The position numbers were made by a program, and so were the translations under genes. From Bacteroidales bacterium (GTDB lineage: Bacteria; Bacteroidota; Bacteroidia; Bacteroidales; FEN-979): DNA of 64,000 bases. This document shows positions 1,341 through 64,000 of this stretch, piece by piece (position 1 is the stretch's first letter; each line of letters begins with the position of its first letter). A model generated the notes under the pieces. It had not been told where the DNA came from. It was given only the letters and a program-made list of their open reading frames with translations, and made no database searches. The stretch covers positions 5,419 through 69,418 of the forward strand of contig JADGPR010000006.1 in the NCBI GenBank assembly GCA_017882335.1, read 5' to 3'.

Positions 1341-1754
1341 CTATTTTTTTGTAAAAACTGCCTGGATATTAATCAGGTTTGCTCCGTCATGGAGTGAATA
1401 AGGCCAGTCGATCCGGGTGGTGCCGGAAACCGTACCGCTGCCGTTAACAATCCAGCCGGGGGAAAGCAGATCGTCGCCTTTCAATGTCACTGTAACTCCC
1501 GATAAATAGGCAGTAGCTTTTGAATTCACACCGGACCCGGCAAAATTGCTGATCAGAATACCGTTTGTAGTTGTGGAATCAATCTCGAAGGTTACCTCAT
1601 AGGTCGCCTTTTTCTTCGATTCACTTACCAGCCATTTTCCGGTAAGTGAGGCCCGGGTTAATGCCAGCGTAGTTCCATTATCCTTATTACAGGACGAGAT
1701 GAAAAATCCTGCAACAAGAGAGAATAGCAGGATGTATTTATTGATGCTTTTCAT
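1341..1754 (-). CDS. lipoprotein, beta-rich (lipocalin-like), function unknown
   Basis: 137-aa ORF with a lipobox (FFISSCNKD). The rest is an alternating beta-strand-like sequence. Confidence 0.5.
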   Translation of the reverse strand: MKSINKYILLFSLVAGFFISSCNKDNGTTLALTRASLTGKWLVSESKKKATYEVTFEIDSTTTNGILISNFAGSGVNSKATAYLSGVTVTLKGDDLLSPGWIVNGSGTVSGTTRIDWPYSLHDGANLINIQAVFTKK

Positions 1755-1790: not shown

Positions 1791-1855
1791 CCTGATCCTG
1801 GATGCTAGATGCTGCCTGCCTGCCGCAGGCAGGGATGCTGTTATTTCCTGGATGG
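1791..1855. repeat. heptamer array + GC hairpin element (copy 1, intergenic)
   Basis: The sequence is cctgatc CTGGATG CTAGATG CTG-CCTGCCTGC-C-GCAGGCAGG-GATGCTG.. The core is a 19-bp perfect palindrome flanked by GATGCTG on both sides. Confidence 0.85.
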
Positions 1856-1896: not shown

Positions 1897-2427
1897 TTAA
1901 ACTAAATTATTGTGATTTTTCCGAAGGATAAGGAAAACGTAAAAGCTGAAGACCATGGTGGTGATTACCTGTGCAATCAGAAAAGAAGGATCCGCTTCTT
2001 CCTTGAGAAACATCATGGAAAAGAAAACCAGGTATAGGGTATAGCAAAGAACCTTGCTGACAACAATAGAAATGATCATCGACAGAAAAGCAGAATCAAT
2101 TTTCCTGAGGAGATAATAAAACAGGAAAACATTGGCTATCATCTCACCCGTCATGACCAGCATTTTGAAAAATTCCGGATGCCCTGATACAGCCCAGGAA
2201 AACATAGATAAGGTAAAGGCCAGGAGGTAAGAATTTACACGGGAAGAATGGGCAATAGATAACACAACCATCAGGCGCATGGGTTCGATCATGTAAAATG
2301 GCAGATGAATGATCTCACCAATTTTAGGAGTGAACATGACAAGAACAAGGGCAGCAATATCAAGGAGTATTGCACTACTGATATCCCGAGCCTGGATGGA
2401 TGAAAGGTTAAATTTTATCAGATTCAT
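1897..2427 (-). CDS. integral membrane protein, function unknown
   Basis: 176-aa ORF with about 5 hydrophobic spans and no recognisable catalytic motif. Confidence 0.45.
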   Translation of the reverse strand: MNLIKFNLSSIQARDISSAILLDIAALVLVMFTPKIGEIIHLPFYMIEPMRLMVVLSIAHSSRVNSYLLAFTLSMFSWAVSGHPEFFKMLVMTGEMIANVFLFYYLLRKIDSAFLSMIISIVVSKVLCYTLYLVFFSMMFLKEEADPSFLIAQVITTMVFSFYVFLILRKNHNNLV

Positions 2428-16261: not shown

Positions 16262-16423
16262 TTATTTCTCGCAGATCAACGCAGATTTATCGCAAACCTG
16301 CCTGCCGGTAGGCTGGTTTCCGCAGAAGAGATATCGATTTTTAATTAAAACAAATGCTAAATTATCAAATCAGAAGGTGTTCTGCGTTAATCAGCTCTTA
16401 ATTTGCGAAAATCAGCGAGAACG
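16262..16423. repeat. MITE-like composite: CGCAGAT-word repeat with embedded GC hairpin, bounded by imperfect inverted TTCTCGC(W)GAT termini
   Basis: The left end is tttctcgcagatcaacgcagatttatcgcaaa. Then comes CCTGCCTGCCGGTAGGCTGG, then tttccgcagaag. The reverse complement of the right end (16379-16423) is cgttctcgctgattttcgcaaat... Confidence 0.6.
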
Positions 16424-17180: not shown

Positions 17181-19868
17181 TTATTTCAGGAAGGTTCTTG
17201 CTTTCTTAAGCGCAGCCGGTATGCCAGCAGGGTTCTTACCTCCGGCCGTGGCAATGTGCGGTTGCCCGCCACCGCCTCCCTGGATTTCTTTTGCCAATTC
17301 ACGGATGATGTTAGCAGCATTGAATCCCTTTTCTTTGATGAGGCTTTCGGAGATCATCACGGTGAGGTTCGCTTTTCCATCATTTTCCGAAGCCAGTACA
17401 AGGAAAAAGTGGTCTGTTGTTTTACTCAGGTCAAAGGCGAGATTCTTGGCAGCATCCACGCTCAGTTCCACTTTTTCGGCAAGGAAATGAATGCCTTTGA
17501 TATTTTGAATCTTTAATGTGATCGCCTCCCGGACTTTATTCAGCTTCATTTTTTCGTATTCGGCTGCCAATAGCTTCAATTCCTGGTTCTCTTCCAGGAC
17601 GGTCTTTAATCCCTTGATGACATCCTTCGGATTTTTAAGCATTTCCTTCACCTCGTCAAGCAAGGAGATCCGGGAATTATAATACTCCATCGCTTTTTCC
17701 CCGGTGATGCCTTCAATTCTGCGGATCCCGGCAGCAATGGCACCTTCTGAAACGATCTTGAATAGCCCGATCTGCCCTGTTGTCGGCACATGTGTCCCTC
17801 CGCAAAGTTCAACAGAGAAATCTTTATCGAAAACAACAACCCTTACCATATCCCCGTATTTCTCCCCGAAAAGGGCCATGGCCCCCATCTCTTTTGCTTT
17901 TTCAATTGCCATCGACCGTTCTTCGTAAAGTTCAATGTTGCTCCGGATCTTCTGGTTCACGTTCTCTTCAGTTTTTTTGATCTCTTCATCTGTCATTTTT
18001 GCAAAATGCGTAAAATCAAAACGAAGGTGATATTCATCCACAAGGGAACCTTTTTGCTCTACATGGGTCCCGAGAACCCTGCGAAGGGCCGCATGCAGCA
18101 GGTGAGTAGCCGTGTGATTGTTGGCTGTATTCCTGCGTTTGGAGTCATCGACCATGGCAGTAACAGAAAGGGAAAGTGTTTCCGGAAGTGTTTTCATCAT
18201 GTGCAGGATGAGGTCGTGTTCCCGAATCGTGTCGGTGACCTCATAATTTTTTTCCAGTGAAACAAGCCACCCCCGGTCGCCCACTTGTCCACCTGATTCA
18301 GCATAAAACGGAGTTTGATCCAATACCACATGGAAAAATTCCCCTTCTTTGGTTTTGACTTTCCGGTAGCGTACTATCTGTGTTTCTGCGGATAGGGTGT
18401 CATAACCGATAAATATATTTCCTGAAGATTCAGGATTCAGGATTACCCAATCTGCCGTATCAACCTGGGCAGCCCGCCGTGAACGGGTTTTCTGCTCAGC
18501 AAGTCCTTTGTTGAAGCCATCCATCTCCACTTCCCAACCTGCTTCCTTCGCCATCAATTGGGTGAGGTCAATCGGGAAACCAAAAGTGTCGTAGAGTTCG
18601 AAAGCGAATGCACCGTCGATGATTTTTTCGACCGGATGCTGGATACTGCCTGCCTGCCGGACAGGCAGGGATGCTGGATGCTGGATATCGGTTGCTCCAT
18701 TCTTGTAAGATTCCAGATAAGAATTGAACTTTGTGATCCCGCTAGCCAGTGTTCGGAGGAATGAAGTCTCTTCTTCCCTGATCACATTTATGACAAGCTC
18801 CTTTTGTTTTTTTAATTCGGGGAAAACATCTCCCATCTGGTCAACGAGAATAGGAATAAATTCATGGATAAAGGCATCTTTCAGGTCAAGAAATACATAG
18901 CCATACCTTACAGCCCTCCGAAGGATTCTCCGGATCACATAACCGGCTTTGACATTGGAAGGCAATTGCCCGTCTGAAATGGCAAAAGTGATGGCCCTAA
19001 GGTGATCGGCGATCACGCGCATGGCAATATCCGCTTTCGGATCGGTGCCGTAAGGAATCCCCGATTTTTGTGCAATGGCTCCGATCAATGGCTGGAAAAC
19101 ATCGGTATCATAATTGGATTTCTTATGTTGCATCACCATGCAGAGACGTTCAAATCCCATTCCTGTATCGACATGTTTTGCAGGCAGGGGAACCAGCTGC
19201 CCGTTTGCCAGGCGGTTGAATTCGATAAAAACAAGATTCCAAACTTCGATGACCAGGGGATTTCCTTTATTTACCAGCGAATAGCCCGGAATTTTTCCCC
19301 TTTCCCGGTCATCCCTTAAATCGACATGGATCTCCGAACATGGACCGCAGGGACCGGTATCACCCATCTCCCAGAAATTGTCCTTCCGCGAACCCAGGAG
19401 GATCCGGTCTTCAGGAATCCACAACCTCCAATTTTCATAAGCTTCAGTATCTTTCGTCAGTCCTTCCTTTTTGTCTCCTTCAAAAACCGTAACATACAAA
19501 CGGTTTTTATCAATCTTGTAAACATCTGTAAGCAATTCCCAACCCCATTCAATCGCTTCCTTCTTAAAATAATTGCCGAACGACCAGTTCCCGAGCATTT
19601 CGAACATGGTGTGGTGGTAGGTGTCGTGCCCCACTTCTTCCAGGTCATTGTGTTTTCCTGAAACCCGGAGGCATTTCTGGGTATCCGCAATGCGCGGGAA
19701 TTTTGATTCTTTGTTACCGAGAAAAATATCTTTAAACCGGTTCATCCCCGCATTGGTAAACATCAGTGTTGGATCATCCTTTATAACCATGGGCGCAGAA
19801 GGAACAATGCTATGTTCCCTGGATCTGAAATAATCAAGGAAGGTCTGGCGTACAGTTTGAGAATTCAT
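17181..19868 (-). CDS. alaS: alanine--tRNA ligase, carrying an in-frame repeat-element insertion
   Basis: Motifs HHTMFEMLGNWSFGNYFK, editing-domain HTATHLLH and CGGTHV, and the DHHA1 tail GGGGGQPHIATAGG. It is 895 aa, and the insertion is at 18633-18688. Confidence 0.95.
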   Translation of the reverse strand: MNSQTVRQTFLDYFRSREHSIVPSAPMVIKDDPTLMFTNAGMNRFKDIFLGNKESKFPRIADTQKCLRVSGKHNDLEEVGHDTYHHTMFEMLGNWSFGNYFKKEAIEWGWELLTDVYKIDKNRLYVTVFEGDKKEGLTKDTEAYENWRLWIPEDRILLGSRKDNFWEMGDTGPCGPCSEIHVDLRDDRERGKIPGYSLVNKGNPLVIEVWNLVFIEFNRLANGQLVPLPAKHVDTGMGFERLCMVMQHKKSNYDTDVFQPLIGAIAQKSGIPYGTDPKADIAMRVIADHLRAITFAISDGQLPSNVKAGYVIRRILRRAVRYGYVFLDLKDAFIHEFIPILVDQMGDVFPELKKQKELVINVIREEETSFLRTLASGITKFNSYLESYKNGATDIQHPASLPVRQAGSIQHPVEKIIDGAFAFELYDTFGFPIDLTQLMAKEAGWEVEMDGFNKGLAEQKTRSRRAAQVDTADWVILNPESSGNIFIGYDTLSAETQIVRYRKVKTKEGEFFHVVLDQTPFYAESGGQVGDRGWLVSLEKNYEVTDTIREHDLILHMMKTLPETLSLSVTAMVDDSKRRNTANNHTATHLLHAALRRVLGTHVEQKGSLVDEYHLRFDFTHFAKMTDEEIKKTEENVNQKIRSNIELYEERSMAIEKAKEMGAMALFGEKYGDMVRVVVFDKDFSVELCGGTHVPTTGQIGLFKIVSEGAIAAGIRRIEGITGEKAMEYYNSRISLLDEVKEMLKNPKDVIKGLKTVLEENQELKLLAAEYEKMKLNKVREAITLKIQNIKGIHFLAEKVELSVDAAKNLAFDLSKTTDHFFLVLASENDGKANLTVMISESLIKEKGFNAANIIRELAKEIQGGGGGQPHIATAGGKNPAGIPAALKKARTFLK
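18633..18688. repeat. heptamer + GC hairpin element (copy 2) inserted in frame in alaS
   Basis: The sequence is cggatgctggatactg-CCTGCCTG-ccgga-CAGGCAGG-gatgctggatgctggata. It is near-identical in architecture and sequence to 1798-1840. Confidence 0.85.
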
Positions 19869-25667: not shown

Positions 25668-25730
25668 CTGGATGCTGGATGCTGGATGCTGGATGTGGAT
25701 TCTAGGTTCTTGGTTCTGGTTACTTGGCTA
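25668..25730. repeat. nine in-phase heptamers: (CTGGATG)4 then TGGATTC TAGGTTC TTGGTTC TGGTTAC TTGGCTA
   Basis: Read directly from the sequence. It lies in the divergent spacer between the porT-like gene and gldB. Confidence 0.85.
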
Positions 25731-29427: not shown

Positions 29428-29502
29428 TCACTGATGTTGAATGACAAAAGTACACATTTTAGTATATTTTCCTTTTCCTGAATTTTATAATCGTAAATGA
29501 CC

Positions 29503-40287: not shown

Positions 40288-41484
40288 TTAGCTGGTTGCA
40301 GGAACAAGGTTCCCTTCACTCAGAATTTCAACTTCCGTTCCATCCTTGGTTTCAATATCAATTCTCCTGCTCACACTCAAAATGATCCCGATAGAAATAC
40401 AGGTAAACCATATCGAAGTGCCTCCCATACTGATCAGTGGCAATGTTTGTCCCGTAACCGGGAACAGATGAACAGCCACTGCCATGTTGATCATGGCTTG
40501 GAATACCAGGCTGAAACCGATCCCGATCGCAAGAAAAGCCCCGAAATTTCCCTGGCATTTCGTAGTAATCCTTACAACACGGAAAAAGAGGATACAGTAC
40601 AAGAGCACCACGAATCCTCCTCCCACAATACCATATTCCTCCACGATGATGGCAAATATGAAATCAGAATAGGGGTGAGGCAGAAAATTCCGTTGTGTGC
40701 TTTTTCCCGGCGATTTCCCCAGTATTCCGCCTGAAACAATGGCAATCTTAGCTTGCTCTACCTGGTAATTCGCATCTTCATCGCCTTTTTCTTTATTCAG
40801 GAAATGATCCACACGGTTGATCCAGGTTCCGCCACGGGGGAAAAGATTGGGTGCAGCTTTTGCCAGAGTGAAGATCAGCACAACGGCAACGATACCCAAT
40901 CCTACCAGTGAAAAAATATATTTCAGCGAGATCCTTCCGATAAACATCAGCACCATGCTGGTTACAAATAAAATTGCTGCCGTGGAAAAATTGGCAGGAA
41001 GGATCAATGTACAAATGAAGATGGCGGGAATAATAACTGGTAAAAATCCCGACTTGAAATGCTTGATCTCCTCCTGTTTTTTGCTGAGCACCCGTGCCAG
41101 GTACATGATCAGGAAAAGCTTGGCTACATCAGAACTCTGAAAAGTAAGATTGATGATGGGTACCGTGAGCCAGCGGTTTGCTTCGTTGAGGTTGGTTCCT
41201 GATAATAGTGTGATGAACAATAAAGGGATGGTTAAGATCAGGCCGATCTGGGAGATTCTTGAAAAATATGTGTATTTGACAAGGTGTGTCGCATACATCA
41301 GCAGGATCCCGAAAACCAGGATTGCAAAATGTTTGAAAAGGTAATATTCGGTGTTCCCTCCCTGCTTCTTATAAGCCAGCGTTCCCGTTGAACTATAAAC
41401 CGCAAGTAAGGAAAAAATGCAAAGGATGGTCACAACGACCCAAATCACTACATCTCCTTTTGCATTCCTGAAATATTTGTTCAT
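40288..41484 (-). CDS. ftsW: SEDS-family peptidoglycan polymerase FtsW
   Basis: About 10 transmembrane spans and LPLISMGGTS. Confidence 0.9.
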   Translation of the reverse strand: MNKYFRNAKGDVVIWVVVTILCIFSLLAVYSSTGTLAYKKQGGNTEYYLFKHFAILVFGILLMYATHLVKYTYFSRISQIGLILTIPLLFITLLSGTNLNEANRWLTVPIINLTFQSSDVAKLFLIMYLARVLSKKQEEIKHFKSGFLPVIIPAIFICTLILPANFSTAAILFVTSMVLMFIGRISLKYIFSLVGLGIVAVVLIFTLAKAAPNLFPRGGTWINRVDHFLNKEKGDEDANYQVEQAKIAIVSGGILGKSPGKSTQRNFLPHPYSDFIFAIIVEEYGIVGGGFVVLLYCILFFRVVRITTKCQGNFGAFLAIGIGFSLVFQAMINMAVAVHLFPVTGQTLPLISMGGTSIWFTCISIGIILSVSRRIDIETKDGTEVEILSEGNLVPATS

Positions 41485-52595: not shown

Positions 52596-52856
52596 ATGAA
52601 ACTCCGAAAAAATGTTGCTGTCAGTGAAGCCGGATTGTTGTTTAACCCTGTAACCGGTGAATCCTACTCAGTGAACCCCATTGGTGTTGAGATTATCAAT
52701 CTCCTGCGGGAGGAGAAAAGCCCGGAGGACATCAGTAAATTCATATTGGGGAAATTTGCAACGGATAAAGCCACATTTGAGAAAGACTATCACGATTTCA
52801 TCGGTATCCTTGAACACCACAACCTCTTAGACAGCCATGAAGAAACGAAAGCTTAA
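52596..52856 (+). CDS. PqqD-family (RRE-like) small protein
   Basis: 86 aa. The pattern LLFNPVTGESYSVNPIGVEIINLL.E..SPEDI...L..F..D....E.DYHDFIGIL..HNLL matches the PqqD/peptide-chaperone fold signature. It overlaps the next gene by 20 nt. Confidence 0.6.
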   Translation: MKLRKNVAVSEAGLLFNPVTGESYSVNPIGVEIINLLREEKSPEDISKFILGKFATDKATFEKDYHDFIGILEHHNLLDSHEETKA

Positions 52857-53883
52857 AATTGCCGTCACTGGGTTGAATGCGATTGACAGTCCGGGTCCCG
52901 GGATTTCGGTAATCAGGGCCCTGAGGGAGGCGGCATCGTTTGATGTCAGGATCATAGGACTGTCATACGAATCGCTTGAGCCGGGCATTTACATGCACGA
53001 CCTGGTGGACCGTACATACTCGATTCCTTATCCTACGGCTGGAATCGACACCCTTCTGGCTCGCCTGGAATATATCCATGAAAAGGAGAAACTGGATGTG
53101 ATCATCCCCAACTTTGATGCGGAACTTTACCCGTTTATCAAACTGGAGACGAAACTCAAGGCCATGGGCATTCATATGTTTCTTCCAACCCTGCACCAGT
53201 TCGAGGAACGGCAGAAGGTAAACCTCAACGAATTCGGGAAGAAGTATAACATCAATGTCCCCAGGAGCAAAGTTATTCATGACCTCAGCATGGTATACAG
53301 TCTCCAGTCGGAATTTTCATTCCCGATGATCGTGAAAGGAAAATTTTACGATGCCTCTATTGCATACAGCATCGAACAGGTGAAAAGCTATTATAATAAA
53401 ATCAGCGCCAAATGGGGGCTTCCCATCATCATCCAGGAATTTATCCATGGTACGGAATTCAACGTAACCGGCCTGGGCGATGGTAAAGGCAATACCATTG
53501 CGGCTGTTCCGATGCGCAAGCAATACATCACTGAAAAAGGAAAGGCCTGGGGAGGCATTTCGATTTCTGACGAGGAAATGCTGGATATGACGCGCAAATT
53601 CCTGCGCACAACAAAATGGCGTGGTGGATTTGAACTTGAACTGATGAAAAATAAGGATGGCGAACTTTACATGTTGGAGATCAATCCGCGCCTGCCTGCA
53701 TGGATCTACCTTGCTGTCGGTGTCGGACAAAACATTCCCGAAGCATTGGTCAAGCTGGCCATGGGTGAAAAGGTAAAACCCTTTACAAAGTATACTGTGG
53801 GAAAGATGTTCGTGCGTTATTCATGGGATATGATTGTTGACAGGGAAGAGTTTGAGCAGATCTCAATCTATGGAGAACTATAA
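52837..53883 (+). CDS. ATP-grasp family ligase (carboxylate-amine ligase type), unassigned subfamily
   Basis: 348 aa. A pre-ATP-grasp region (KIAVTGLNAIDSPGPG..), a central block FPMIVKG......I...E, IIQEFI.G.EF.V, and the Mg/ATP loop LMLEINPRLPAW. Confidence 0.7.
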   Translation: MKKRKLKIAVTGLNAIDSPGPGISVIRALREAASFDVRIIGLSYESLEPGIYMHDLVDRTYSIPYPTAGIDTLLARLEYIHEKEKLDVIIPNFDAELYPFIKLETKLKAMGIHMFLPTLHQFEERQKVNLNEFGKKYNINVPRSKVIHDLSMVYSLQSEFSFPMIVKGKFYDASIAYSIEQVKSYYNKISAKWGLPIIIQEFIHGTEFNVTGLGDGKGNTIAAVPMRKQYITEKGKAWGGISISDEEMLDMTRKFLRTTKWRGGFELELMKNKDGELYMLEINPRLPAWIYLAVGVGQNIPEALVKLAMGEKVKPFTKYTVGKMFVRYSWDMIVDREEFEQISIYGEL

Positions 53884-53886
53884 TAA

Positions 53887-53924
53887 CTAGCGAAGCCTGC
53901 CTGCCGGTAGGCAGGTAGCGAAAA
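53887..53924. repeat. GC hairpin element (copy 4) flanked by 7-bp direct repeat TAGCGAA
   Basis: cTAGCGAAg-CCTGCCT-gccggt-AGGCAGG-TAGCGAAaa, starting 4 nt after the ATP-grasp stop codon. Confidence 0.8.
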
Positions 53925-59717: not shown

Positions 59718-62700
59718 CTAATCCTTTAAGCATCGGACACTGAATGCATTCGCCCTGCTTGCAGGATAAAGCGCTACACTGGGATCATAATCATTCATCA
59801 CATGCGCCCAGGATTTGGTGGAAGTATATGCCGTTGAAGACCAAAAGAAGGTGGCGAAACCGTCATAGCTCCAGGAGATGTTGAACAACCTGGTACCTGC
59901 TAATAATGCATTGTACCCGGAATATCCGGAATATTTCAAAGGGCTTCCTGCAAAGCCATTGTTTGTCCAGTTGACAAATAATATATTCCAGTCATTTTCT
60001 GTCGGCACATGCCATCCCGGGGGGCACAATCCCTGGTTCGACACAGAAAAATCGTACTGCATCAATTCATCCCATTGATAGAACACGGATCCGGTGGTGC
60101 AGCGCACAGGGATATCGTTGTAACAGTACTTTTCAACTATGCAATTGTCCCTTTGAGTTGATGATCCTGCTATCTGTGACCCATAGTTCAGGTTGGCAGC
60201 CATCCAGCACTGGGTGCCGATCTGAACGGTAGGATAAACCTTGTTGTCCCTGATATCGGTGATCGGGCTTCCACAATTGACAATTGAAAATGGATAATTG
60301 ATAATATTGGCATGGGCAAGGGTGCTGCAGAGTGCTGCATTGGTGTAGGTATACGTGATTGAGTGTGTGCCTATGCCTGCGAGTGATGGGGTAAAAACGC
60401 CGGTTAAGGAATTGACTCCTGGTCCCGAGTAGGTTCCCCCCAATGGAATTCCACCTTTGAGCATAAAGGGTTTGGCATTGATGGTTGTAACCGTATCAAA
60501 ACAAGGGTTAAAAGTAACAATAGGATTACTGTTAACCGACATGGTGATTGCATTGCTGGTGGCAGGATTACCACTGGTACAGGTGAGGTTGGAAGTCAGC
60601 AAACAGGAGATCAAATCGTTATTTGATGGATTATAAGTGTATGCCGGGTTATTGGTACCAACATTGATCCCGTTGACTTTCCATTGATAGGATGGAGAGC
60701 TGCCACCATTTGCAGGTATTGCAGTGAAAGTAACTGCGATACCCGCACAAACCGGGTTATCCGATGCAGCAAGTGAAACACTGACCGGCAGGTTGGGATT
60801 GACAATCATCTGAAGCTGGATGCTGGATGCTGGATTGCTGGATGTACAAGATTCTGACGAAGTAAGTACACAGGATACCAGGTCCCCGTTTGCCGGAATA
60901 TAGGTGAAGTTTGGAATATTGGTTCCGACATTTATTGAGTTAACCTGCCATTGGTATGCAGGCAATATTCCTCCGTTTACAGGATTTGCAGTGAATGAAA
61001 CAGAAGTTCCGGAACAAACCGGATTTGCATCAGCAGATATGGAAATGGTGACAGGCAGATTGGGGTTAATTGTCATTACCACTATATTGCTTGTTGCCGG
61101 GTTACCGGAAGTACAAGTCAGGTCAGAAGTCAGAACACAGGAAACCGCGTCATTATTGGATGGCGCGTACGTGAATGCAGGTGAATCTGGGCCGATATTG
61201 ATACCATTCACTTTCCACTGGCAGGTTGGTAAAGCCCCTCCATTGACCGGTGCTGCTGTAAATGTCACTGGTGTGCCGGCACAAACGGGATTGGCTGATT
61301 CTGCAACTGAAACACTGACCGGCAAATTAGGATTGACGGTCATTATCACGGTTGTGCTTGTGGCAGGATTCCCTGTTGTACATGATAAGTCAGAAGAGAT
61401 CATACAGGAAACAGCATCATTATTGGATGGTGTGTATGTAAACAATGGTGAATTTGATCCTTGATTAACTCCATTGACTTTCCATTGGTAAGTTGGTAGA
61501 GTCCCTCCGTTAACAGGTGTCGCAGTAATTGTAATAGGAGAGCCGGCACATACCGGGTTTGCATCGGGTGAAATTGTCACACTAACCGGCAGATTTACAT
61601 TGACCGTCATGTTGACCTGGTTGGAGGTTGCGGGATTATTGGCGATGCAAAGCGTTTCGGAAGAATTAAGTATACAGATGACTTGATCATTTTCGGCCGG
61701 AGTGAAAGTATATATGGGGTTGTTTGTGCCGACATTGATGCCATTTACCTGCCATTGGTAAGTTGGAGAGGTTCCTTCATTTTGTGGGGTCGCCGTAAAT
61801 GTAACAGTTGATCCTGAACAGACCGGATTGGCCGAAGGAGATATCGATATATTGACAATATTAACCGGGTTAACAATCATTATAATGGCATTGGATAATG
61901 CTGGATTATTGGAGATGCATGTGATATTGGATGAAGTTAAAACACAAGCGACAATATCTCCGTTCAGCGGAACATAGGTATAAACAGGAAAATCGGAACC
62001 GGCATTGAGTCCATTCACCTTCCATTGGTAAGAAGGATTTATCCCGCCATTGGTCGGTGTGGCTGTGAAAGTTACCATAGTTCCTACGCAAATGTTATTG
62101 GAAGAAGAAACAATGGATATATTTACAGTACTAATTGGAATTACCGTTACAATATATGCTACTGTATTTCCAACACAACTCCCCAATACTGGCGTAATAA
62201 AATAGGTTACAGTTTCATTGACTGTATTTGAATTTGTGAGCACCTGGTTGATCGTATTTCCTATACCAGATGAATAACCGGCAACAAAGCCTGAGGAACC
62301 GGTAGCTGTCCACGAAAATGTTGTAATTGGAACATTTGAAGTTAAAATAATATTTGTTGAATTGCCTGAACAGATCGATTTTGCCAGGGGGAAATTCGTG
62401 ACAACTGGAGTTGTAATGGTTAACAACTGGACTGTATCCATAACCTGGCACCCGCTTGTATTTGTGACAGTAACCTTATATATACCAACCAGACCCGTTG
62501 TGAAAGTCTGTGATGTTCCAACTGTTAAACCGGAACCGAGGTCTATCCACAGATAAGTGCAACCCGCACATGCGCCCGCATCGAAGATAACGGTTTGTCC
62601 CTGGCAAACGGTTGTATCCGGTCCAAGGTTTACGGGTGTAACTGAATATAACGACACGTTCACCTCATCGTTTGCTGTGCAGCCGGTTTTTGTAACGGTT

Positions 62701-64000
62701 ACGGAGTAGGTCCCGGCGACTGATACGATGATCGTTCTGATAGTTGCCCCGGTCGACCAGAGGTAGGTTGTATATCCTGCGCCGGCATCAAGAGTGGTAT
62801 AGGTTCCCGGGCAGATGCTCCTGTCGGGTCCCAGATTTACAATAGGCACAGCTCCGATAATGATGGTCTTGCAAAGACTCACTTGGTCTGGCAGCCCCTC
62901 GTTAACTAATAATCTTACATTATAGGTTCCGGGCTGGTTATATGAGAATGGTGGTGGGTTGAACAAAGTGGAAGACGGAACCGATGCATTGGCGCAAGGG
63001 GGGAAAGTCAAACGGGTAAGTGTATTCGATCCCCTGTTAGTTATATAAGCAAAAAGAGTATCATTTTGACGGAAGATCTCAGAAAAGCTGTGAGGCAGAT
63101 TGAGATTACCAATGTTCCCTAAAACCTGACCTGTGACAGTACCTGTAACCCCTCCTGTAAAAATCAATTTGCCCAGTTGCCCGTTCGTAAGATATTTTGT
63201 AAAGTAGCCGCTTGTTAAATCACAATCACGAACTATTGAGAGTCCCCCTCCAGACAAAACACCACCGGGGTTACCTAAATTTTCTCCGGTTGGAACATTC
63301 AGAAGTGAATTACCAAATGTCAACCGGGATATACTAGCGTTGCCATTTATCATTAACGCATACCATAATAGGTTTTCCTTAACAATACATAAAGGACCTG
63401 GATTGATCAAAACTCCTAAATCTCCAAAGTCTGTTATTGTTGGGATGTTAGTTAAGCTGTTTCCAAAATTGAATCTGACAAATTTATCTCCCGTAGAACA
63501 GTTTGCAAATGCCATCCATGTTGTACCTTCTTTCATTACAACCAATCCATGTAACATAATTAACCCGCTAAATGGACCCAGATCAATGGCTGTTGGAGTA
63601 TTCGCTAAAGAAACGCCAAAATCCAACCTGACCAATGTAGTGTTGTTACAAACAAATCCATACCAGTTTCCATTATCCTTTTTTACTTGAATCCCTTCAA
63701 TGGAAGTACCAAGTATACCACTAAAAGTTCCGAAATTAGTCCAGCTTATCGGATTATGATTAAATGTCGTCCCATGGTAATATCGGATTATTCCAGCCTG
63801 TTGACAACTTATAAAGGAATAACAATTGTTTCCATCCTGAACAAGTGTCATATATGTTGGAACACTAAGCAAACCTCCTGCATTTCCAATATTTACCCCT
63901 GTTGGATCATTGGTTGTATTTCCGGAACAAAAATTCCAATAAAAAGTTGATCCTCCGGTTGTCAGGTTTGTAATAGTTATCTGAGCGCCGATACAGCTGG
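59718..64000 (-). CDS. giant surface protein (5'-truncated by window): beta-propeller-like repeats, PKD/PKD-like domains, six tandem ~89-aa Ig-like repeats, C-terminal Fibrobacter-succinogenes-major-paralogous (FISUMP) domain
   Basis: The reading frame stays open upstream of the track start to the window end. The C-terminal ~185 aa match the FISUMP pattern (DIRDNKVYPTVQIGTQCWMAANLN...CPPGWHVPT..DW..L...AGG.LK......FFWSST......AW......V......AFSVRCLKD). The middle holds 6 repeats with NPVC.G..VTFTA.P.NGG..P.YQW.VNG. Confidence 0.8.
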   Translation of the reverse strand, partial: SCIGAQITITNLTTGGSTFYWNFCSGNTTNDPTGVNIGNAGGLLSVPTYMTLVQDGNNCYSFISCQQAGIIRYYHGTTFNHNPISWTNFGTFSGILGTSIEGIQVKKDNGNWYGFVCNNTTLVRLDFGVSLANTPTAIDLGPFSGLIMLHGLVVMKEGTTWMAFANCSTGDKFVRFNFGNSLTNIPTITDFGDLGVLINPGPLCIVKENLLWYALMINGNASISRLTFGNSLLNVPTGENLGNPGGVLSGGGLSIVRDCDLTSGYFTKYLTNGQLGKLIFTGGVTGTVTGQVLGNIGNLNLPHSFSEIFRQNDTLFAYITNRGSNTLTRLTFPPCANASVPSSTLFNPPPFSYNQPGTYNVRLLVNEGLPDQVSLCKTIIIGAVPIVNLGPDRSICPGTYTTLDAGAGYTTYLWSTGATIRTIIVSVAGTYSVTVTKTGCTANDEVNVSLYSVTPVNLGPDTTVCQGQTVIFDAGACAGCTYLWIDLGSGLTVGTSQTFTTGLVGIYKVTVTNTSGCQVMDTVQLLTITTPVVTNFPLAKSICSGNSTNIILTSNVPITTFSWTATGSSGFVAGYSSGIGNTINQVLTNSNTVNETVTYFITPVLGSCVGNTVAYIVTVIPISTVNISIVSSSNNICVGTMVTFTATPTNGGINPSYQWKVNGLNAGSDFPVYTYVPLNGDIVACVLTSSNITCISNNPALSNAIIMIVNPVNIVNISISPSANPVCSGSTVTFTATPQNEGTSPTYQWQVNGINVGTNNPIYTFTPAENDQVICILNSSETLCIANNPATSNQVNMTVNVNLPVSVTISPDANPVCAGSPITITATPVNGGTLPTYQWKVNGVNQGSNSPLFTYTPSNNDAVSCMISSDLSCTTGNPATSTTVIMTVNPNLPVSVSVAESANPVCAGTPVTFTAAPVNGGALPTCQWKVNGINIGPDSPAFTYAPSNNDAVSCVLTSDLTCTSGNPATSNIVVMTINPNLPVTISISADANPVCSGTSVSFTANPVNGGILPAYQWQVNSINVGTNIPNFTYIPANGDLVSCVLTSSESCTSSNPASSIQLQMIVNPNLPVSVSLAASDNPVCAGIAVTFTAIPANGGSSPSYQWKVNGINVGTNNPAYTYNPSNNDLISCLLTSNLTCTSGNPATSNAITMSVNSNPIVTFNPCFDTVTTINAKPFMLKGGIPLGGTYSGPGVNSLTGVFTPSLAGIGTHSITYTYTNAALCSTLAHANIINYPFSIVNCGSPITDIRDNKVYPTVQIGTQCWMAANLNYGSQIAGSSTQRDNCIVEKYCYNDIPVRCTTGSVFYQWDELMQYDFSVSNQGLCPPGWHVPTENDWNILFVNWTNNGFAGSPLKYSGYSGYNALLAGTRLFNISWSYDGFATFFWSSTAYTSTKSWAHVMNDYDPSVALYPASRANAFSVRCLKD
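60528..62126 (-). repeat. six tandem ~267-bp coding repeats (Ig-like modules) inside the giant surface-protein gene
   Basis: By eye the protein repeats are 87-90 aa each. Conserved blocks are NLPVSV.., ANPVCAG..VTFTA.PVNGG.LP.YQWKVNGIN.G.., FTY.PSNNDAVSC.L.S.L.C.SGNPATSN...M.VNP. Confidence 0.85.

Follow-up and report, generated by a model that had tools for sequence, protein, structure and literature searches.

The window, that is, the whole stretch of 64,000 nt analyzed here (C83:5419-69418), belongs to an assembly of 3.13 Mb in 123 contigs with 44% G+C and contains four copies of a short GC-rich hairpin, hereafter the core, lying next to or inside tandem arrays of short words (Table 1). 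The pattern CCTGCCTGCC-N2-8-GGCAGG matched three times in the window, compared to 0.00 matches expected from 100 dinucleotide shuffles, and one degenerate copy came in addition. The initial annotation, made from the letters of this stretch, had described a multi-copy family with four members, and all four are present, including a perfect 19-bp palindrome with GATGCTG on both sides (1808-1814 on the left and 1834-1840 on the right), a copy in alaS flanked by GATACTG and GATGCTG, and a degenerate copy. The TAGCGAA words that it had read on either side of the fourth copy are also there, but not with the 7-bp spacing, as they follow a period of 8 and a single G stands between the left word and the core.

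Table 1. Copies of the hairpin core, tandem arrays and the alaS host gene in the window (positions are those of the window).
Feature	Position	Strand	Description
GGATGCT heptamer array split by core	1800-1840	+	GGATGCT AGATGCT G / core / GATGCTG
19-nt core CCTGCCTGCCGCAGGCAGG	1815-1833	+	intergenic; 9+1+9 palindrome; folds as 8-bp stem
Degenerate 20-nt core CCTGCCTGCCGGTAGGCTGG, one mismatch	16297-16316	+	in CGCAGATTNN decamer array 16270-16335
alaS (alanyl-tRNA synthetase), host gene	17181-19868	-	895 aa; 873 aa where relatives lack both array and core
In-frame GGATGCT array of alaS	18634-18690	+	minus-strand reading DIQHPAS...SIQHP; holds core
21-nt core CCTGCCTGCCGGACAGGCAGG	18649-18669	+	within alaS; flanks GATACTG / GATGCTG
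Coreless GGATGCT array, ~4 units	25670-25698	+	counted among the genome's 59 AGCATCC arrays
20-nt core CCTGCCTGCCGGTAGGCAGG, GGTAGG variant	53896-53915	+	intergenic; between TAGCGAAG and TAGCGAAA
Coreless GGATGCT array	60811-60845	+	within long open frame 59718-63872 (-)

The first core is found between ORFs 1341-1754(-) and 1897-2427(-), and the phase (GCTG/core/GATG) and orientation in its array agree with those of the other script-scorable copies of this class (type A). The degenerate copy, C83:21714 in the genome list, has the decamer context (type B) found in 12 other copies, and the GGTAGG variant starts 12 nt past the stop of ORF 52837-53883. The two coreless GGATGCT arrays of the window illustrate that arrays outnumber cores (59 AGCATCC arrays genome-wide, compared to 13 with a core). 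One of them is located at the 3' edge of an ORF, and the other does not interrupt the open frame of 1384 aa in which it lies. At the spacer around 29462-29482 (C83:34880-34900), the orthologous spacer of the nearest genome-level relative (G001) has an extra block of ~190 nt, made of 'gattgacgat / aatcgtaaatc' arrays and a 19-nt core, which this genome does not have. A search for known RNA families gave no Rfam match in the window.

Genome-wide, 50 core loci were found with a looser pattern, ~48 of which belong to the family, and with up to two arm substitutions allowed there were ~68 copies. The core is by far the commonest hairpin with a 7-bp stem in this genome (38 occurrences, compared to 16 for the next, unrelated family). 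Its consensus is the perfect palindrome CCTGCCTGCCGGCAGGCAGG, from which every variant differs by one central change. The loop is CCG in 19-nt copies and CCGGA or CCGGC in 21-nt ones, and copies of 20 nt have either CCGG or, through a C-to-T change, GGTAGG. Copies are single, without an inverted-doublet arrangement, and direct repeats flank at least 14 of the 50, compared to 0.7% of random sites. The genome-wide pattern search and flank tabulation that the initial annotation had proposed therefore yielded a family of ~48-68 copies, whose flanks fall into a few array classes: GGATGCT heptamers (13 copies), CGCAGATTNN decamers (~12 copies), and TAGCGAAN, AATCGTA and GACGCAA words, next to several unique sequences. 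The array words are abundant throughout the genome (59 AGCATCC arrays, 39 AATTACG arrays and others), and altogether 351 heptamer and 120 octamer arrays were counted, compared to ~0 in a shuffled genome, making up 0.48% of the bases. AGCATCC arrays occupy 0.07% of the genome, yet 13 of the ~48 cores are inside them, always in the phase GCTG/core/GATG and, for the script-scorable copies, in the same orientation (11 the same, 0 reverse). The core thus lands at unit junctions of pre-existing arrays ~400 times more often than expected by chance, with fixed phase and orientation. It also lands in other dispersed repeats, in its own loop center and at unique sites, and can exist apart from each of the array types. 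On the left of three type-A copies is a unique sequence that ends in TG, and on their right at least one GATGCTG unit. In type-B copies, TTTT directly follows the core. Runs containing the sequence came from permafrost, peat and soil metagenomes; RNA runs contained only 5-6% of words.

Comparison of filled and empty sites in relatives, also proposed in the initial annotation, revealed three cases (alaS, mutS and C118) in which the difference is precisely the core. The mutS gene reads CATCCAG CATC/core/CAG CATCCAG CATCCAG CATC, and that of G001 has a coreless 32-nt array of equal length, the sole difference being 21 nt. The reverse was found for a 20-nt core of G001 at aattcg^taatt, where C118 of our genome has an uninterrupted AATTCGT array. 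Within the genome itself, the joined flanks of 24 of the 50 copies were found elsewhere as paralogous empty sites with a continuous junction. Examples are C86:18480 and C79:5400 (type-B decamer element, 100% identical over 46 nt), C75 and C105 (98% over 58 nt), and C62:24388 and C62:23760 (a filled and an empty site in each pair). Empty paralogues outside arrays include gggatt^gttcgac (four paralogues), aatcaaa^taatcaa, caggagag^ggttaggg and accgcaaa^gggcgcgg. At orthologous sites, the whole 20-21 nt is either present or absent, with no intermediates. Since the type-B decamer element occurs both with and without it, the core is a secondary guest in pre-existing repeats. It is a discrete, gene-less insertion module of 19-21 nt that is gained precisely, without target duplication or deletion, leaving the neighboring bases unchanged. 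Target-site duplications, the origin first suggested for the identical 7-bp flanks, had to be abandoned, because filled and empty sites (alaS, mutS and the paralogues) do not differ in unit number. The relatives bear out the alternative that the initial annotation had mentioned, namely that the core inserts into heptamer arrays already in place, as they carry the same alaS and mutS arrays without a core. Its broader idea of a small mobile or templated element family holds for the multi-copy nature and the mobile-like behavior, and fails only in its reading of the flanks as target-site duplications.

The best-documented insertion is that in alaS, the orthologue of which carries the Pfam domains tRNA-synt_2c, tRNA_SAD and DHHA1. 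Array and core are both missing in three relatives (G010, G011 and G005), G001 has the array without the core, our genome has the array as in G001 plus exactly 21 nt, and G008 has the array with a variant core. On the minus strand, the core is translated as LPVRQAG in the context ...DIQHPAS-LPVRQAG-SIQHP.... In GCA_936412005, a closer relative found via the protein cluster, the array is uninterrupted. The AlaS identities (93% between our genome and GCA_936412005, and 87% for each of them against G001) and the tree support the topology ((own, GCA_936412005), G001), so a single gain in our lineage is more parsimonious than two precise losses, a polarity that rests on parsimony with few taxa. The array has kept unaltered a private CAGTATC unit that is only 4 nt away from the junction. 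The insertion is also covered by contigs of two independent runs (X4 and X5), and the core may be missing in a further run, X3. Because the repeat interrupts Logan contigs, no insertion was caught in reads. In G012, both alaS (L003) and mutS (L283) have arrays of another heptamer, with ATCCCAC in place of ATCCAGC, which suggests either concerted rewriting or independent insertions at the same permissive loops.

The core turns over fast, decays neutrally and is filtered by reading frame in genes. G001 has 23 core loci, ~15 of which could be mapped to our genome with both flanks close, and none of these ~15 is filled at the orthologous position. The ~68 copies comprise 21 with perfect arms, 23 with one substitution and 24 with two, and no substitution is compensated, which indicates that copies are decaying and that the structure is not kept by selection. 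Each of the 10 copies located in credible genes has 21 nt (7 codons), compared to none of the 36 intergenic copies, all of which are 19-20 nt. The genes involved are alaS, mutS, a uvrA-like gene, iscS-selD, a DPP7-like gene, dxr, GT9, asparaginase, a membrane glycosyltransferase-like gene and one small ORF, and the intragenic cores use more than one reading frame and either strand of the element. An enrichment of 21-nt variants in long open frames was likewise seen across phyla, both in low-GC loci (6/28 compared to 5/94) and in high-GC loci (29/40 compared to 21/65). Selection within genes keeps only the 21-nt variants, in permissive segments such as the variable loop of alaS. In the membrane glycosyltransferase-like gene (C72:30975-31157, L295 in G001), the two genomes have independent 21-nt cores ~90 nt apart, one inside a heptamer array, the other outside the array. 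Some cores are found beside tRNA sequences. At C94:20686-21200, the D-arm of a tRNA-Arg(TCT) 5' fragment contains a core, and a small GIY-YIG-like ORF and an intact tRNA-Arg gene come next, in that order. At two loci of Patescibacteria (L057 and L098) the core is abutted by 5' tRNA fragments. Insertion into tRNA genes was discarded, as all three contexts are 5' fragments and not intact genes.

Among 40 relatives, the distribution was patchy, ranging within the genus from 0 matches per genome, as in G003, to 126, in G008, with several genomes of the same genus without any core. GGATGCT arrays were patchy too, although not in parallel, and two genomes (G005 and G033) have cores and no GGATGCT arrays. 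Bursts of the core carry genome-specific loop variants, such as GGCAAAGG in G127, and in G008 a burst family consists of a 19-nt core within 'cacagatt' decamer arrays. At the level of the phylum, 97 of 401 genomes had a core match, compared to ~6 for the same pattern read backwards as a control. A scan with one genome per species found at least 120 stretches in more than 10 phyla, where ~1-10 are expected by chance. The matches listed include Patescibacteria, Omnitrophota, Planctomycetota, Gammaproteobacteria, Bdellovibrionota, Nitrospirota, Chloroflexota and Ignavibacteria, as well as cultured Flavobacteriia and Sphingobacteriia. Each of the cultured Winogradskyella echinorum KCTC 22026, Flagellimonas yonaguniensis and Olivibacter oleidegradans has at least one copy. 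The stem sequence is identical across phyla. Among the cross-phylum matches listed, flanks are mostly unique, junction repeats appear at 6.6% of sites compared to 0.75% of control sites, the target shows a weak R^K preference and beyond that no conserved motif, and six loci in six genomes have a core inserted in a core, split at CCG^G. The core was also present in 84 viral contigs, one of which has a terminase gene and at least six copies. A sequence-based literature search for the core matched only unrelated primers, and plasmid BLAST gave weak matches only. Other GC hairpin families were seen beside GGTGAGG-type arrays, namely CCCTCTCC-N4-GGAGAGGG (~14 copies) and CCCCTCCCC-AATT-GGGGAGGGG (~15 copies), with example sites at C51:12500 and C98:5410 and at loci L051, L125 and L149. 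Such families accompany cores in unrelated phyla too, so several phyla may have more than one hairpin module in common.

A gene that might drive the element was searched for in several ways. The initial annotation had noted no transposase in the window, and indeed the Y1_Tnp search gave no match on its contig. Next to the cross-phylum copies listed, no Pfam family was recurrent in 108 flanking ORFs, and only phage genes were found in the phage with at least six copies. Genes for PF05635 four-helix-bundle and PF13366 GxxExxY proteins were rejected as drivers, their counts not tracking those of the core. PF05635 ('23S rRNA IVS protein') gave 14 hits, and in all 11 whose flanks were read (C21:41425, C42:36718, C14:2419, C81:3437, C35:25619, C65:6905, C72:23352, C25:64211, C4:46333, C77:12152 and C32:20225) the gene is located between inverted arrays of a private 7-8-mer, which in one case are GGATGCT arrays. 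The PF13366 GxxExxY gene at C51:60547 likewise has inverted CGCAGAT arrays on both sides. The arrays, which bracket these genes, are thus part of a second, larger modular system. In G014 (C131:9500-10500, L320), a four-helix-bundle gene between two tRNA genes has inverted GTGTGGG/CCCACAC arms with the CCTGCC core mirrored in each arm, and the orthologue in our genome, at C32:20225, has the arms without the cores.

Several explanations of the family can be weighed against these data. The least credible one invokes a miniature inverted-repeat transposon generating target-site duplications of 7 bp. It would account for the identical 7-bp words beside several copies, but these words fall into few classes that are themselves abundant arrays, empty sites of relatives and paralogues match the filled ones in unit number, and a junction repeat accompanies only the 6.6% of listed cross-phylum copies given above. 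That the core is a REP element mobilized by a RAYT (a Y1/IS200-like HUH enzyme), for which the initial annotation had recommended a search elsewhere in the genome, also appears improbable. Its size and palindromic form fit, as does the lack of target duplication, and Y1_Tnp genes do exist in the genome; however, the two strong ones (C5:39950 and C85:23244) are both flanked by non-core hairpin repeats, presumably the REPs of these very genes. At C85:23690-23900, four tandem units of ~52 nt with a CACCCCTGCGGGGTT hairpin lie beside the Y1 gene, and at C5:39830-39940 and 40500-40610, direct repeats with GCCACGAAGTGGC and CCGTGGGCGGAGTCCACGG hairpins flank the other. Three cores are 5-320 bp from a Y1 gene (in our C5, G016:C53 and G029:C258) and one phage carries GTAG-headed core copies, but a GTAG or CGTC head is not general, as no enriched 4-nt head was found among 346 core instances. 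The 10 intragenic copies and the absence of REPIN doublets point the same way. Y1 is present in 29 of the 37 phylum genomes with at least four core matches, compared to a baseline of 60% over the 401 genomes, a weak association with clear exceptions: no Y1 gene (E<=1e-10) was found in the complete genome G047, which has 34 matches, nor in seven other core-bearing genomes, and the phage with at least six copies lacks one as well. The RAYT link was therefore discarded.

A host-functional motif, be it a terminator acting in both directions or a site bound by a conserved protein, selected and non-mobile, seems very improbable. The hairpin is strong, its stem is conserved across phyla, and some copies lie 3-30 nt past stop codons or between convergent genes, but the numbers in convergent, tandem and divergent spacers (8/22/6) do not differ clearly from the length-weighted expectation (4.9/20.9/10.3), which reveals no clear positional bias towards a terminator role. 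Translation of 10 copies within genes, the coreless genomes of the same genus, the ~15 mapped loci of G001 with no copy at the orthologous site, the uncompensated decay and the lack of an Rfam match in the window argue against such a motif too. Even harder to sustain is a repeated de novo origin by (CCTG)n slippage followed by symmetrization of the palindrome, with no copying. The arms are indeed tetranucleotide repeats, variants with three left units exist, and nested LLRR forms could arise by slippage and quasi-palindrome correction; against this, the control palindrome of equal composition and reversed sequence is almost absent, orthologous sites hold all 20-21 nt or nothing, and the bursts have genome-specific variants. 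Much more weight is due to spread by DNA-templated copying from donor copies elsewhere in the genome with no dedicated enzyme, a serious rival that we nonetheless regard as rather unlikely. Copying could proceed by double template switching where forks stall in arrays or hairpins, or else by gene conversion over short tracts or homing-type repair of breaks between arrays with a common unit. The strong array preference speaks for it, as do the fixed phase and orientation in each array class, which copying from one homologous array to another would likewise produce. Further support comes from the genome-specific loop variants, the three type-A copies, whose TG on the left and GATGCTG on the right look like co-copied donor flank, and the core-rich complete genome without Y1. 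The mirrored cores in both inverted arms around a single gene of G014 indicate that intramolecular template switching is active in such structures. Templated copying would work in Patescibacteria and phages without special genes, and the occurrence of the core in these small genomes and in phages fits general replication and repair as well as it fits a dedicated enzyme. On the other hand, many insertions at unique sites have exact hairpin boundaries and share only 0-2 nt of visible homology with the flanks at other copies, and the private unit of the alaS array 4 nt from the junction was not converted. The stem, identical across phyla and free of compensatory changes, suggests recognition of the sequence and not of the structure alone.

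On balance, we favor, with moderate confidence, the reading of the core as an SDR-like, gene-less, ultra-small mobile or templated module, which combines precise insertion with a trans-acting route that recognizes the hairpin. New copies would derive from resident ones, which would explain both the bursts and the loop variants specific to each genome. A sequence-specific trans-acting factor might bind the extruded or single-stranded hairpin and cut and join at its foot, as in the behavior proposed for cyanobacterial small dispersed repeats. Such a factor would be encoded away from the element and is probably not a Y1/RAYT transposase. That the hairpin is recognized by sequence in this way is plausible, if somewhat short of probable, and is suggested by the same uncompensated stem across phyla together with the exact boundaries at unique sites. 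Phages with copies may seed new lineages. After insertion, copies decay by uncompensated substitutions, and in genes only 21-nt variants are kept. A bolder version is more doubtful, namely that the 20-nt palindrome CCTGCCTGCCGGCAGGCAGG is the smallest mobile DNA yet, pan-bacterial (at least 10 phyla plus phages), written by conserved, sequence-specific machinery other than Y1/RAYT, and a module of a wider system of arrays and four-helix-bundle/GxxExxY (PD-(D/E)XK-like) cassettes.

If the favored reading of an SDR-like module is true, mobile repeats below 30 nt, represented by the Nostoc SDRs of one cyanobacterial family, would be extended, through one conserved core, to Bacteroidota and numerous further phyla. 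The congeneric variation in copy number (0 to more than 100), the cultured isolates with the core and the defined target GCTG^GATG in GGATGCT arrays offer handles for finding the driver. For annotation, the inserts of seven codons and of heptamer arrays in alaS, mutS, the uvrA-like gene, dxr and other genes would be real and translated rather than assembly errors. They also break short-read assemblies, as seen in the contigs at the alaS copy. The element further bears on how protein loops gain sequence and on the puzzle of bacterial heptamer repeats.

To our knowledge, the SDRs of Nostoc are the one class of mobile repeats below 30 nt described so far. SDR1-8 (especially SDR4-6) of Nostoc/Anabaena, which Elhai and colleagues are said to have described in 2008, are reportedly nested in STRR heptamer arrays and in HIP1. 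SDRs lie within tandem heptamer arrays without disturbing their phase, and the core does the same, with 13 copies in GGATGCT arrays and others in 8-mer and 10-mer arrays. Both are palindromic, gene-less and of the ~20-27-nt class, the core being slightly shorter (19-21 nt) than the published ~21-27 nt. Both insert precisely without target duplication, with mobility inferred from filled and empty sites; SDR5, for instance, is located between bases 3 and 4 of HIP1 (PMC4390886; see also PMC2884548 for SDR background). However, SDRs have been reported in Nostocaceae only, other families reportedly lacking them (PMC5861425), whereas the core is found in Bacteroidota, more than 10 other phyla and phages, and its 21-nt variants are translated within essential genes. 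The core thus works like an SDR in a Bacteroidota host, a comparison of behavior and not of sequence, and we do not file it as a member of that class. With the Rickettsia palindromic elements, a miniature version of which it resembles in behavior when inside genes, it shares a palindromic and selfish nature and the in-frame presence in coding sequences, including essential genes, at permissive protein segments, but those are ~100-150 bp long and not known outside Rickettsia, while the core is 21 nt, sits in heptamer arrays and occurs in many phyla. REPs and REPINs are also short, GC-rich, dispersed palindromes without target duplication (PMC3116915), and REPs are tagged by GTAG/CGTC (PMC3733652). 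Unlike them, the core has no tetranucleotide head, no doublets and no cognate Y1 gene flanking it, and is not strictly extragenic; REP sequences are lineage specific, whereas its stem is the same across phyla. It differs from the IS200/IS605-derived PATE in being a single 20-nt hairpin with no common 5' target word, and from MITEs in having no fixed-length target duplication and continuous junctions at unique sites. Finally, the heptanucleotide long simple-sequence repeats, cyanobacterial STRR and TAACTGA repeats (Mrazek 2007, as relayed in PMC4679880) are of the same kind as the host arrays described here and equally patchy in phyletic distribution. They correspond to the arrays and not to the hairpin, and the arrays of our genome also flank four-helix-bundle and GxxExxY genes.
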